Below are positions 50,479 through 61,373 of a stretch of 64,000 bases of DNA, one piece after another. Location: contig CAVRUQ010000003.1 of assembly GCA_963724405.1 (NCBI GenBank), positions 1,722,140-1,786,139 on the forward strand, in the 5' to 3' direction. A program made the translations under genes and the position numbers. The stretch's first letter is position 1. The number at the start of each line of letters is the position of its first letter. A model generated the notes under the pieces. That model was given only the letters and a program-made list of their open reading frames with translations. It was not told the origin of the DNA and searched no databases. The stretch comes from an uncultured Solirubrobacterales bacterium (GTDB lineage Bacteria; Actinomycetota; Thermoleophilia; Solirubrobacterales; Solirubrobacteraceae).

Positions 50479-50784
50479 GCGAATGGGGCAGGGCCGATCC
50501 GCGCCTCCCGGGGCGACTCTGACAAACTCGACCGTTGCGACCGCCGCGCCGATCGCTCGCGCATGTCATTGCTGGATCGCGAGCTCGATCCGACGTCCAA
50601 CACACGATCGAGGCAACCTCGAGCAGCTGGCTGAGCTGCCTCAGCACGGGCGGGAATCCATGCCAGGCGAGCTCTCTGGTCGACCGACCACCCGGCATGT
50701 TTGACATCCGTCTGACGCGCGCCCGATTCGGGCGCAAAGCGGCGTCGCCGTGGTCGCGATAAGCCGGCCGATCGGGTGCACCCT

Positions 50785-50860
50785 CTCGGGACTCGCGCCT
50801 CGGTCGGCCGGGAGTAGTGGGGGCGGGATTCGAACCCGCGACCTTCGGGTTATGAGCCCG
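50785..50860 (-). repeat. Repeat E: truncated tRNA-fMet 3-prime half (anticodon stem-loop to acceptor) with a short flank
   Basis: Reverse complement of 50816-50861 reads CCGGGCTCATAACCCGAAGGTCGCGGGTTCGAATCCCGCCCCCACT. This is near-identical to the 3-prime half of the intact tRNA at 61466-61539. No D-arm or 5-prime acceptor strand follows. Confidence 0.8.
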
Positions 50861-50981
50861 GCCTCGACACCAGCCGGCACGATGCGGATGGGTCGGTCCG
50901 TATCAGGTTTGGCGGGCCGGCGCTCTTCGTCTTTGAGCACCGACCCGATCGGTTCACCACACGCCAAGACAGGGGAGTTCG

Positions 50982-53087
50982 ATGAGTCCTCAGCCACCCG
51001 AGTTCGAAGCGGGAGGGGCACCCAAGCTCCCGCGCGAGCGCGCGCATTTCACCGAGCTACTGCTCGCCAACCACTTCAAGGAGATTGCTGCTCCGGCGGA
51101 GGGGACTCCGCCCGAGGGCAACACGACCTACGAACAGCTCACGTGCATCGGCTATCAGCCACAGCTCGGCCAGCTCAACGCCGTCGTGAGCCTCAAGCAG
51201 GCGAACGGCTACTCGGGCGGGATCTGCAGTGCCGGCTCGCAGGAGTACGTGAAGTTCTTTGCCTCGACCGACGGCGGTGCAACATGGACCACGCTTGGCG
51301 TCACCTCGTTCACCTCCCGGGACGTGGCCGGACCGAAGCCCCTCGAGTTCGACGTCACCCTTCCGGTCGATCTGGCCCAGGCGTGCTGCAAGAAGGAGAA
51401 CCTCGTCCTCATCCGCGCGATCCTCTCCTGGCGGGTGCCGCCGGGCGGCGCCACCGACCCGGTGGTGTGGGGCAATGGCGTCGACGCCTACGTCCAGGTC
51501 GCTCCGCTGACGCTCGGCACCCTCACCGAGGTCTTGGAGTGCCTGGAGATCCCGCTTGAGCCCCACGTGCTCAGCGAAATCGCCAACCCCGAGCAGATCG
51601 TCGAGTTCGGTCCCGCCAAGCCGCTCACGCCGCTGCAGCTGCACGAGCTCTACCGCGACACCGACATTCCCCAGCATCGGTACCTGCTCGGCCCCGTGGC
51701 GCAGCTGCTGGCCGATCCGGTGGCCCTCGGCGCCGCGGTCGACCAGCCTGGGCTGCAGCTGTTTCCGGGACTGCAGGGCATCGCCGAGATCGGATCGATC
51801 GTCGGCAGCATCCTGGATCCGCAGGGCAACGAGACCTACGAGCAGCTCGGCTGCATCGGGCTGAACCCGAGCACCAGCGCGCTCGTGGCCACGATCGACG
51901 TCAAGCAGTCGGCCGGGTACTCGGGCAGCCTCTGCACCAGCGGCAGCCAGGAGTACGTCGCCTTCTGGGCCGACTCCGGGAGTGGCTACGAGTACGTGGG
52001 GACGAGCTCGGTCAACGTGCACGACCTCCCGTCGATCCCTGCCGGCGGCGTGCGGTACTCCGCGGCGCTGCCGTTCCCGCAGGCGCTCACGCAGCGCCGG
52101 GCATGCACCGACGGACCGAACACGGTGGCCATCCGGGCCGTGCTGTCGTGGGCGACGCCCCCGTCGGACACGAACCCGTACGCGGTTCCGGTCTGGGGCG
52201 GGCATCTGGAGGCGACGGTCCTCATCCCGCCCGGCGAGCCGGTCATGCCCGGGGGCGGCCCGGACCTCGAGTCCATCGGCAACATGCCGATCGGCCTCAT
52301 CGACCAGGGGACCGGCCTGGCCACCGGCCAGTCGCTGGCCACGTTCGTCGCCACCGCGTCGCCGTTTGGCGGAGTCGTCAACTTCAGCGGGCACGTGATC
52401 AATCCGTCGGGTGGCGTGGGCGGCACCGGCCTCAGCTACCGGATCCTCATCAGCACCGACGGTGGCGTCACCTCGACGCCGATGACCGCGCCGTTCCACG
52501 TCGAGACGAACAACTGGATCACCTCGGTTCAGACGTCCGTCCTGCAGACACCCGACTCGTCCGGGTGGGTCAGCTGCCTGGAGAACTACGCCGCGAACAC
52601 CGACGTCGTCGGCAACCTGCTCGGCCAGTGGACGACTGCGGGCAACGGACAGCTGTGGGTGGCGATGGAGGCTCGTCAGGGCTCCACGCCCCTCGGTCCC
52701 GCGATGCCGACGTGGACGCTCATCCAACTGGACAACACCGCCCCGTCTCCGGTCACGGTGGAGATCACCAGCGGCGGCGGCTCGTGCGGCGACTTCCAGC
52801 CGGGAGCGCTCATCGAAGGCACCTACTCGGCGGCCGACAACGAGGATCTCCGGGCCGTGAGCATCGCAGTCGAGATGCCGATGCCCGGGTCGACCCTGAC
52901 CAAGGTGCCGACGTTCACCAGCCTGACCAGCGAGTCGGGCACGTGGAGCCTGCAGACGCTGCCGACGACGGAGCCGTGCGGGTACACGATCGTCGCTCAG
53001 GCCAGCGACAACACGATCGTCAACAGCGGGTTCGTCGGCTGGACCACGGAGGCCTTCACCGGTCTGTGCCTGCGGCCCGCCACGTGA
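50982..53087 (+). CDS. Uncharacterised 701-aa protein with an internal tandem duplication of a ~205-aa domain
   Basis: Residues ~47-250 and ~284-490 are clear paralogous repeats (NTTYEQLTCIGYQPQ...YSGGICSAGSQEYVKFF... versus NETYEQLGCIGLNPS...YSGSLCTSGSQEYVAFW...). Conserved Cys pairs. No signal peptide at the annotated start. Confidence 0.5.
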   Translation: MSPQPPEFEAGGAPKLPRERAHFTELLLANHFKEIAAPAEGTPPEGNTTYEQLTCIGYQPQLGQLNAVVSLKQANGYSGGICSAGSQEYVKFFASTDGGATWTTLGVTSFTSRDVAGPKPLEFDVTLPVDLAQACCKKENLVLIRAILSWRVPPGGATDPVVWGNGVDAYVQVAPLTLGTLTEVLECLEIPLEPHVLSEIANPEQIVEFGPAKPLTPLQLHELYRDTDIPQHRYLLGPVAQLLADPVALGAAVDQPGLQLFPGLQGIAEIGSIVGSILDPQGNETYEQLGCIGLNPSTSALVATIDVKQSAGYSGSLCTSGSQEYVAFWADSGSGYEYVGTSSVNVHDLPSIPAGGVRYSAALPFPQALTQRRACTDGPNTVAIRAVLSWATPPSDTNPYAVPVWGGHLEATVLIPPGEPVMPGGGPDLESIGNMPIGLIDQGTGLATGQSLATFVATASPFGGVVNFSGHVINPSGGVGGTGLSYRILISTDGGVTSTPMTAPFHVETNNWITSVQTSVLQTPDSSGWVSCLENYAANTDVVGNLLGQWTTAGNGQLWVAMEARQGSTPLGPAMPTWTLIQLDNTAPSPVTVEITSGGGSCGDFQPGALIEGTYSAADNEDLRAVSIAVEMPMPGSTLTKVPTFTSLTSESGTWSLQTLPTTEPCGYTIVAQASDNTIVNSGFVGWTTEAFTGLCLRPAT

Positions 53088-53102
53088 CCGCGGGGAGGAG
53101 GG

Positions 53103-53442
53103 TCACATGCGCCTGACCGACCCACCGGCGCGTTTCGTGCTGGCGTCACTCGCCACCTGGCGAGTGACGCACCTCCTCGCCGAGGAGGACGGGCCGGCCG
53201 ACGTCGTCGTGCGCCTGCGGGCGCGCGCCGGCGCCGGCCGGCTCGGCGGCCTGATGGACTGCTTCGGCTGCCTGAGCATCTGGGTGGCGGCGCCCTTCAG
53301 CGTCGGCCTGGCCGGCGCGCGACGCCGAGGCCCGGTGGCGTGGCTCGCCGTGTCCGGGGCGGCCTGCCTGCTCGAGCAGGCCACCCGCGCGCGCACCGCG
53401 CCGTCCCACGTTCCGACCGAAGAGGAGACCGAACAGCCATGA
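53103..53442 (+). CDS. DUF1360 family small membrane protein
   Basis: Motifs RVTHLL, DGPADVVVRLRA and DCFGCLSIWVA (C-x-x-C-x-S-x-W), characteristic of DUF1360. GGGAGGAGG RBS. Confidence 0.55.
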
Positions 53443-60401: not shown

Positions 60402-60469
60402 GGGCCCCGGGCATGGATCCCGGTCAAGCGACCTCGCGGCAACATCGGCCGGCAGGGCTCCTGTGAACG

Positions 60470-60645
60470 ACAAGTGGCGCGGTGGCCGAGATCGGATCAT
60501 CCTCCGCGACGGGCGTCAGCGCGGCGCCGTCGTCTCGGGCACCGCAGTGGTGGCCAGCCCGACGCTCAACCCGGCGGACGCCACCGTCGAGGTCAAGCCC
60601 AAGGACAATCCGAAGCAAGTAGTCATCGCGATCCTCATCGGCTGA
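60470..60645 (+). pseudogene. Gene fragment paralogous to the 3-prime end of the 53808-54389 gene
   Basis: About 80% nucleotide identity over ~170 nt, including the stop codon (IILRDGRQRGAVVSGTAVVASPTLNPADATVEVKPKDNPKQVVIAILIG). The upstream part of the listed ORF (60334-) lacks homology. Confidence 0.5.
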
Positions 60646-60852
60646 GGACGCCGGCCGGGCGCCGCCTGCCCGCTCTTCTCTACGTGGGGAACGTCCTGCA
60701 TGGCCGTGGCGCGGCGGGCGCTGATCTCGAGACACCGAAGGCCACTCTTTCCCGGTCTGGCTCGGTGTCGGTCGGTCCCGGGTGGACTCGATGCCGCCGT
60801 CAGCTCTGGCGGCGCGGCGGCGGTATGAAGTCTGAACCGTAGAATCGCGGCC

Positions 60853-61254
60853 ATGCCGTTCACGCTCAGGAACCTCAGGGAGGATCTGCCGGACGTCGGG
60901 TCCAACTTCGACGGCGCACCGGACCTGGAGTTCCGCCCCGCGACTAAGGCGCTCGAGCTCGAGCAGTCCGGCCTGAGCTATCAGCGCATCCCGCCCGACT
61001 ACCGGTTCCCATACGGCCACACGCACGCGGAGCAGGAGGAGGTGTTCGTGGTCCTCGGCGGGAGCGGGCGGATGAAGCTCGACGACGAGATCGTCGAGGT
61101 GAAGAACTGGGACGTCGTGCGCGTTCCGCCCGGTACATGGCGAGGGTACGAGGCCGGGCCGGAGGGCCTCGAGATCCTCGTCTTCGGCGCGCCCAACGTC
61201 GGCGAGAACCCGCGGGAAGACGTGGAAGGTCAGCGAGACTGGTGGGCTGACTGA
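60853..61254 (+). CDS. Cupin domain protein
   Basis: Cupin motif 1 (GHTHAEQEEVFVVLGGSG) and motif 2 (GTWRGYEAG). 133 aa. Confidence 0.7.
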   Translation: MPFTLRNLREDLPDVGSNFDGAPDLEFRPATKALELEQSGLSYQRIPPDYRFPYGHTHAEQEEVFVVLGGSGRMKLDDEIVEVKNWDVVRVPPGTWRGYEAGPEGLEILVFGAPNVGENPREDVEGQRDWWAD

Positions 61255-61373
61255 GCGTCGCCCGGCGGATGGTCGGCGGTTGCTTTCGCGGAACCGGCTC
61301 GCGTCGTGGCGTGCCTCCTGGCCGATGTTCGACATCCGTTGTTTGACACGTGCCCAATTCGGCCGCCTCCCGA

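Follow-up and report, generated by a model that had tools for sequence, protein, structure and literature searches.

A conserved, TTGACA-containing block in a 64-kb stretch of DNA from an uncultured Solirubrobacterales bacterium (the whole stretch analysed, hereafter the window; G+C 71.5%) forms the distal and not always present part of a portable ~186-bp repeat unit. From the tRNA outward, the unit consists of the 3' half of the initiator tRNA gene (tRNA-fMet; 46 nt, ending in the anticodon stem), a trailer of ~90 nt with two hairpins, ~25 variable nt and the block itself. Each copy of the unit bounds a small cargo cassette, and together they form a tandem array, anchored at the tRNA gene, of cassettes that lack an integrase; systems of this kind are known. 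At the core of the block, the 11-nt sequence GTTTGACAYSS is directly repeated with a spacing of 11 bp, one helical turn.

Comparison loci comprised 10 kb on each side of ppx, which adjoins tRNA-fMet throughout the group in the relatives' loci that were fetched, from 31 genomes, with further assemblies added later. Loci carry labels such as L001, and L070-L079 are metagenome contigs that all encode the same Ppx protein. The closest relatives of the window are metagenome-assembled genomes (MAGs) from Danish soil. The repeat units of the window are designated c1-c5, c5 including part of the intact tRNA gene.

Repeat finding and self-BLAST placed five units, all in direct orientation, at 50.8, 54.9, 58.2, 59.1 and 61.5 kb. 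They lie downstream of the tRNA gene in the sense of the tRNA, which is to the left on the plus strand, and all five right junctions map to the anticodon stem, 0-3 nt from GAGCC. A first-pass annotation of this DNA had listed three repeats; these stand, and two further units, both without the block (54762-54896 and 59015-59152), had been overlooked. As read from its sequence, the tRNA gene bears initiator hallmarks, namely three G-C pairs beside the anticodon loop and a C1/U72 mismatch. The gene and the units are as follows:

61466-61539, minus strand: intact initiator tRNA-Met (CAT) gene (ARAGORN; Rfam RF00005, 65.7 bits)
61375-61512: unit c5, part of the intact tRNA gene plus trailer
59015-59152: unit c4, trailer plus tRNA 3' half, without block (91% identity to 61375-61512)
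58072-58217: unit c3, trailer plus decayed tRNA 3' half (82-83% identity to c4 and c5)
54762-54896: unit c2, trailer plus tRNA 3' half with an indel, without block (94% identity to 61376-61509)
50781-50860: unit c1, tRNA 3' half (1 mismatch) plus proximal trailer, with hairpin 1 largely deleted (96% identity to 61438-61511)

The Rfam tRNA model also matched c1 at 50815-50871 (partial, 30.6 bits), with weak D-arm similarity past the usual junction, and c1 may be a decayed whole tRNA copy and not a clean 3' half.

The block was located in two of these units and, probably in decayed form, in a third:

61324-61367: block copy of c5, beside the intact tRNA (GATGTTCGACATCCGTTGTTTGACACGTGCCCAATTCGGCCGCC; nhmmer E=3.7e-12), aligned with c1, L001, L002, L069, L070 and L077
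50697-50735: block copy of c1, the most distal unit (ATGTTTGACATCCGTCTGACGCGCGCCCGATTCGGGCGC; nhmmer E=1.1e-11)
58039-58075: probable decayed block copy of c3 (TGTTGTGACCGTTGACGCGGCCCCATTTCACGGCC; marginal statistics, colinear position)

Homology between 50692-50740 and 61326-61366, claimed in the first-pass annotation, is borne out, with coordinates correct to within 2-5 nt. Local alignment of c1 with c5 over the 200 nt left of the hairpins scored 40, compared with 19.0 ± 2.5 (maximum 28; z=8.4) for 200 dinucleotide shuffles, a similarity that exceeds chance by a wide margin. A profile built from six block copies (nhmmer) recovered these two at E~1e-11 and nothing else in the 64-kb window; the c1 copy was also matched by pattern with 2 mismatches, at a chance expectation of 0. 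Units c2 and c4 lack the block. The weaker third match that had been proposed at 58040-58075 is probably a decayed copy, its position being colinear and the c3-orthologous unit in L069 retaining the tail of the block (GCCCGATTC), but its statistics are slight, with pairwise z of 3.0-3.8 against c1, L001 and L002 (scores reached by 4-7 of 500 shuffles), z of 1.2 against c5 and 2.4 bits by profile. Three further candidates were discarded. A block-like string right of c4 (59208-59232, CGCTTGACGATCCGCAGACGCG), considered as evidence of a block-bounded cassette, escaped the profile even when the search was confined to 3.4 kb; a 14-16-nt exact match in L029 (6791-6804, minus strand) lies within a DUF3618-like coding sequence (TDVKQ) and is a coincidence; and minus-strand open reading frames (ORFs) starting in the block (MSNI.../MSNM...) were rejected as genes, having no Pfam match and off-frame composition, with one overlapping the cupin gene on the opposite strand.

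The two direct repeats are perfect in L001 and L070, where GTTTGACA occurs twice, exactly 11 nt apart (9681/9692 and 299/310, respectively), and L001, L070 and L077 share an identical 21-nt core next to 25 nt that vary. In the window they read as follows:

50699-50709: c1 repeat R1 (GTTTGACATCC), with TTGACA at 50701-50706
50710-50720: c1 repeat R2, degenerate (GTCTGACGCGC), carrying GTCTGACG
61327-61337: c5 repeat R1 (GTTCGACATCC), with one T>C change from the consensus (L001, L070) giving TCGACA, and carrying GTTCGACA
61338-61340: 3-nt insertion GTT after c5 R1, read from sequence
61341-61351: c5 repeat R2 (GTTTGACACGT), with GTTTGACA at 61341-61348 and TTGACA at 61343-61348

Because TTGACA falls in R1 of c1 and in R2 of c5, the window hexamers are not at homologous positions; the earlier description of TTGACA-type hexamers ~40-60 nt left of the hairpins holds roughly for distance (~32-60 nt). 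The direct repeats lie 155-180 bp from the anticodon-loop junction.

Among relatives, the trailer is common to the close loci L001, L002, L067, L068, L069 and L070-L079 and, more distantly, to L005 and L023. The block adjoins it in L001, L002, L070/L074/L079 and L077, and partly in L069 and L072/L076. It keeps the same position beside at least 5 unrelated left neighbours: cupin (c5 of the window, L069 and L077), VapC (c1 of the window), TetR (L002) and two unrelated sequences (L001 and L070). Homology ends on the left within a few nt of (G)ATGTTTGACA in each setting, so that the block is the outermost part of the unit and one of the first-pass suggestions, a shared element-end sequence, describes it well. 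In wider searches, the trailer 20-mer GTCGGCCTCCGTGCGGGCCC had 17 matches in metagenomes, all in unrelated coding contexts; viral contigs gave 0 matches to the trailer and 18 to a degenerate block pattern, none of them related or close to a tRNA-fMet and their GC low or otherwise different; and BLAST of block plus trailer against plasmids and phages returned no match.

The unit varies independently of a clonal tRNA/ppx backbone. In L070-L079 the tRNA and ppx are 99.9-100% identical over 1 kb. Identity drops to 84-96% in the 135-nt units, which adjoin three different left contexts, and polymorphism in the alignment begins 2 nt past the tRNA 3' end. Given this clonal backbone with divergent units, the unit, including the block, belongs to a variable island and not to the host backbone, and the first-pass remark that such conservation is unexpected for plain host flank was right. 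Units recombine with one another, as those of L070-L079 are mosaic, different pairs of contigs sharing different sub-segments, including a flipped hairpin 1 loop. Many short-read contigs of this population stop at the tRNA.

Accretion can be followed at the cupin cassette, which is linked to c5 in the window (60853-61254, plus strand, Pfam Cupin_2) and is 91-94% identical at the nucleotide level to its counterparts in L001, L002 and L067, compared with 81-88% for ppx. In these three relatives, inserts of 8.4 kb (L001), 2.3 kb (L002) and 5.9 kb (L067), all without a recombinase, separate the cupin cassette from the intact tRNA, and the older cupin unit has been eroded in three different ways. 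New segments between the old cassette and the tRNA are the pattern of integration into the intact tRNA, displacing older segments. As in tandem accretion and in arrays of cis-mobilizable elements (CIMEs), an intact tRNA stands beside direct repeats of its 3' part that share one junction and bound successive segments, the segments differ between relatives with the newest beside the tRNA, and the segments lack integration genes. From sequence comparison, the accretion has the pattern of tandem site-specific integration at the anticodon loop. A topoisomerase IB ortholog abuts the island in L002 (5165-6486) and L067 (967-2040), with a tRNA/trailer remnant directly after the stop codon. The window's topoisomerase IB gene (34679-35986) sits 15 kb left of c1, with an LPG-synthase gene on its other side; the variable region in the window genome may span ~36.0-61.5 kb, including a rearrangement.

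As to what the block does, we tentatively favour arm-type-like sites to which a recombination protein binds or once bound, lying where an att-like module ends within a CIME-like array formed by tandem accretion, a reading that is slightly easier to doubt than to affirm. The two GTTTGACAYSS repeats at the outer edge of the unit would be a binding-site pair, with the block repeat sequence GTTTGACATCCGTTTGACACG as the candidate target. The protein would be either an integrase, binding through its N-terminal domain as at arm-type sites, or a directionality factor, of the element family that built the array; it would either be encoded at another genomic site and act in trans, or has been lost. The window sites would then be decaying relics, with one imperfect repeat per copy and the 3-nt insertion disturbing the phasing in c5. 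Arm-type and directionality-factor sites of lambda-type integrases (lambda P'1-3, mycobacteriophage L5, pSAM2) are short, helically phased direct repeats, placed where the functional att site ends, at 50-180 bp from the crossover and on the arm with the tRNA 3' end. Likewise, L001 and L070 have two short phased direct repeats within ~200 bp of the crossover, with the window copies degenerate, and arm-type integrase binding sites, as the first-pass annotation had proposed among other options, are compatible with this anatomy. Unlike the lambda-type sites, the candidates seen here occupy one arm only, two of the five units are without them and no cognate integrase was found.

Several observations weigh against such binding sites. 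The profile found no block-like sequence within 200 nt right of any junction, leaving the P-arm side without a block copy, and cargo genes abut or overlap the junctions, unlike at classical two-armed attP sites. Besides c2 and c4, the tRNA-proximal units of L067, L068, L005 and L023 are without the block, and the persistence of blockless units shows the block to be dispensable for that persistence and possibly for integration. Both window copies of the block are degenerate. The mosaic units indicate that homologous recombination or gene conversion acts, which could maintain the repeats without any site-specific function. Pfam searches of the window ORFs tested detected no Phage_integrase, Resolvase, Recombinase or transposase (hypothetical ORFs without a Pfam match remain); phmmer with the tyrosine integrase of L020 and the large serine recombinase of L008 against the six-frame translated window gave only a trivial tRNA-antisense match; and no recombinase lies within 10 kb of the tRNA in L001, L002, L067, L068 or L069. 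These searches of the window and of the relatives' flanks thus yielded no binding partner for the block.

Other lineages offer a parallel in favour of the binding-site reading. Just past the tRNA-fMet terminator, several carry tandem direct repeats unrelated to those of the window:

L003 ~9715, L004 ~9015 and L013 ~9680: GGGAGGAA twice, also given as ATCTCGGGAGGAA twice
L027 ~4330: the exact 11-mer AAATTGGTACG twice (0 of 300 shuffles)
L020: TTGCCCC twice

Their enrichment across lineages is modest (p<0.1 in 8 of 26 loci, ~5 independent families), a further point against a recombination role. In L004 the homology edge again falls at the tandem repeats. The repeats of L003, L004, L013 and L027 adjoin toxin-antitoxin modules (HEPN/MNT, AbiE), not integrases, and no integrase was found adjoining the tandem repeats of L027, L022, L012, L007 and L029. 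A genuine tyrosine integrase is present in L020 (7886-9100), in a 7.5-kb element with a 47-nt tRNA repeat and the same junction, and large serine recombinase genes end in or against the tRNA-fMet 3' end in L008 (7999-9768), L010 (7323-9083) and L018 (4691-5086). The initiator tRNA is a common hotspot for several recombinase types in Solirubrobacterales.

The block could instead be functionless, the far end of a progenitor unit, such as the trailer of an ancestral tRNA-fMet locus, kept by descent and gene conversion. This reading, though somewhat unlikely, is nearly as likely as the favoured one, and several observations accommodate it: both window copies are imperfect, with 3 nt inserted between the c5 repeats, the block is missing or eroded to a varied extent in c2, c4, L067, L068, L069, L072 and L076, mosaic recombination among units is evident and the recombinase search found none. 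Passive descent is harder to reconcile with a 21-nt repeat core that is identical in three lineages (L001, L070 and L077) whose adjacent sequence differs, with a homology edge that holds its position to a few nt beside four unrelated neighbours, and with the presence of tandem direct repeats past the terminator in the unrelated unit families of other lineages as well.

It is improbable, though conceivable from the sequence, that the unit is the portable site of an integron-like cassette platform, in which a recombinase encoded elsewhere would shuffle integrase-less cassettes at the initiator tRNA and the block would be an arm or directionality-factor site setting directionality. Like integron arrays with their attC sites, the cassettes are promoter-less and recombinase-less and share only a structured, palindrome-rich end site of 100-190 nt. 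Integrons differ in having an IntI-type integrase and attI; the combination of IntI, attI and the Pc promoter was not found here, no tyrosine recombinase being present in the window and the array being anchored on a tRNA gene. The shared site here holds half a tRNA gene with junctions in the anticodon stem, its hairpins resemble ordinary terminators, and gene orientation is mixed.

A third alternative sees in the block a secondary site of insertion or crossover, duplicated on both sides of inserted cassettes; it is highly improbable. It draws on L002, in which a 2.3-kb segment encoding MFS and TetR proteins is flanked by block-like CTTGACACCCGTTTGAC (7332-7350, 12.2 bits) and CTGACTCCGTTTGATACGG (9679-9713). 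This single case is equally explained by accretion followed by loss of the hairpins and the tRNA half of the older cupin unit, other deletions in that unit being seen in L001 and L067; moreover, no block copies lie right of any window junction and the block, as read from its sequence, is without the dyad symmetry typical of recombinase core sites.

The first-pass annotation had named a promoter-like block in its title, and its geometry was correct, in that plus-strand transcription from the block would cross the hairpins and yield an RNA complementary to the tRNA half. The hairpins of c5 are as follows:

61375-61465: hairpin trailer of c5 (minimum free energy -84.9 kcal/mol, z=-4.4 relative to shuffles)
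61379-61408: hairpin 1, a perfect palindrome of 11-13 bp, retained in 15 units of different genomes
61414-61462: hairpin 2, bracketed by two copies of GGTCGGCC

Across the 15 units, hairpin 1 shows changes on both sides at two pairs. Its palindrome also stands alone at 63244-63272, downstream of the gene adjoining ppx, and looks like a generic bidirectional terminator. The hairpin 1 loop (61391-61396 in the window, compared with L070/L072) reads TCGC in some units and the reverse complement GCGA in others, which indicates flipping of the hairpin. Copies of GGTCGGCC can base-pair in plus-strand RNA alone, by way of G-U pairs, minus-strand RNA giving C-A mismatches; their variants alter one side only, and an RNA stem and a DNA direct repeat both fit. 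Consensus folding of the trailer gave -48.2 kcal/mol for the plus strand and -40.2 for the minus strand, owing to G-U pairs, and this comparison disclosed no compensatory changes specific to the plus strand. RNAalifold on the 15 units paired only the trailer hairpins and left the block columns unpaired, and Rfam matched only tRNA and a group II intron, with nothing at the block; this covariance check therefore gave nothing for a structured antisense RNA that includes the block. A small hairpin in the tail of the block (GCCCAATTCGG) was rejected, its register differing between copies without consistent covariation.

That one TTGACA is a -35 element driving a plus-strand structured RNA antisense to the tRNA-fMet 3' half is most improbable, perfect though the hexamer is in c1 and c5 (and in L001, L070 and L077, where it occurs twice each) and slightly better though the trailer folds as plus-strand RNA. 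A -10 search with an E. coli-type consensus, a type of scan that captures actinobacterial promoters poorly, returned 0 promoter-like sites on either strand of 50400-61700 in the window or in the best-conserved homologues (L001 9500-10000 and L070 100-620). No copy has a -10-like hexamer, of the form TAnnnT, 16-18 nt from TTGACA, the hexamers found 17 nt from each TTGACA being CCTCCC, GCCCAA and CGATTC, with CCAATT also listed at -10 distance. Furthermore, TTGACA sits in a different repeat in c1 and c5, the block is missing from two of the five units, and a transcript would meet the strong palindrome of hairpin 1, the one that also stands alone and terminator-like, ~30 nt downstream. In all three block-bearing units the gene on the left (VapC, HxlR and cupin) converges on the block, so that on neither strand can the block serve as promoter for an adjacent gene. 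On these sequence grounds a sigma-70-type promoter is unsupported.

The cassettes bounded by the units carry the following cargo, assigned by Pfam:

c1-c2: a 701-aa unknown protein, DUF1360 and a 193-aa secreted-looking protein
c2-c3: carbonic anhydrase, MFS transporter and HxlR regulator
c3-c4 (58206-58830, minus strand): VapC (PIN, 3e-15) and a MazE/AbrB-type antitoxin (MazE_antitoxin, 4e-08)
c4-c5: LtrA, a truncated copy of the 193-aa gene and cupin

An exact look-up of the cupin protein returned no identical record. The last ~55 codons (54229-54399) of the 193-aa gene (53808-54389) recur in truncated form at 60494-60655, upstream of cupin, with 81-88% identity, and L067 shows the same truncated copy before cupin (2975-3188); the cupin cassette thus carries the remnant of another cassette's gene. 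Two VapC (PIN) genes lie in the array, at 58206-58613 (minus strand) and 50053-50478 (plus strand). The former reads into the tRNA fragment of c3, where its stop codon lies, and tRNA-derived DNA thereby encodes its C-terminus. Some VapC toxins cut initiator tRNA in the anticodon loop; chance may account for the placement of VapC beside tRNA-fMet halves. Past the terminator hairpin of c2, the place where a block would be expected is occupied by a group II intron fragment (54508-54678, minus strand; Rfam RF02001, D1-D4, 126 bits), which has a possible 5' end (GTGCGA) near 54733 and in which neither a reverse-transcriptase ORF nor domain V/VI was detectable. A C-rich repeat of ~40 nt (CCGAACGCGCGCCGCCCGCC...) is present in five overlapping copies at 62769-62912, directly after ppx.

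The array resembles several systems described elsewhere. Where integrative elements and CIMEs accrete in tandem at the 3' end of a target gene, a tRNA or another, as in the ICESt1/ICESt3 family (PMC5704250), successive segments are likewise bounded by direct repeats of the gene's 3' part, att-like sites are kept without integration genes, and newer segments lie beside the intact gene. Here, by comparison, all cassettes in six genomes are without a recombinase and very small (0.9-6 kb), and the shared repeat continues for ~140 nt after the tRNA 3' end, across the terminator hairpins as far as the 11-nt repeat pair. The tycheposon islands of Prochlorococcus (10.1101/2020.12.28.424599) also show new segments displacing older ones at a tRNA, and are similarly tRNA-anchored, variable between co-occurring near-identical cells and scattered with full-length and partial tRNAs; what defines them is integrase and replication modules of their own, none of which was seen in this array, and the phylum also differs, the array belonging to Actinomycetota (Solirubrobacterales). 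In the ssrA-specific tandem islands of Dehalococcoides, a single-copy small-RNA gene has its 3' end directly repeated in a high-plasticity region (PMC3146451). Several such repeats delimit tandem islands there too, but those islands carry their own serine recombinases and their repeats are short ssrA pieces without a long shared trailer. The less usual traits of the present array are thus the long shared trailer with its repeat block and the absence of recombinases from the searched regions of six genomes.

For annotation, a conserved TTGACA-containing block is here no evidence of a promoter, and two copies of GTTTGACAYSS followed by the trailer and a tRNA half provide a sequence tag for cassette boundaries in long-read MAGs. 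The clonal backbone with different units in L070-L079 points to a hotspot that is active at the population level. If the favoured reading is true, the block would be the functional edge of an attachment module that drives gene turnover beside the single initiator-tRNA gene in a poorly known, abundant group of soil Actinomycetota.

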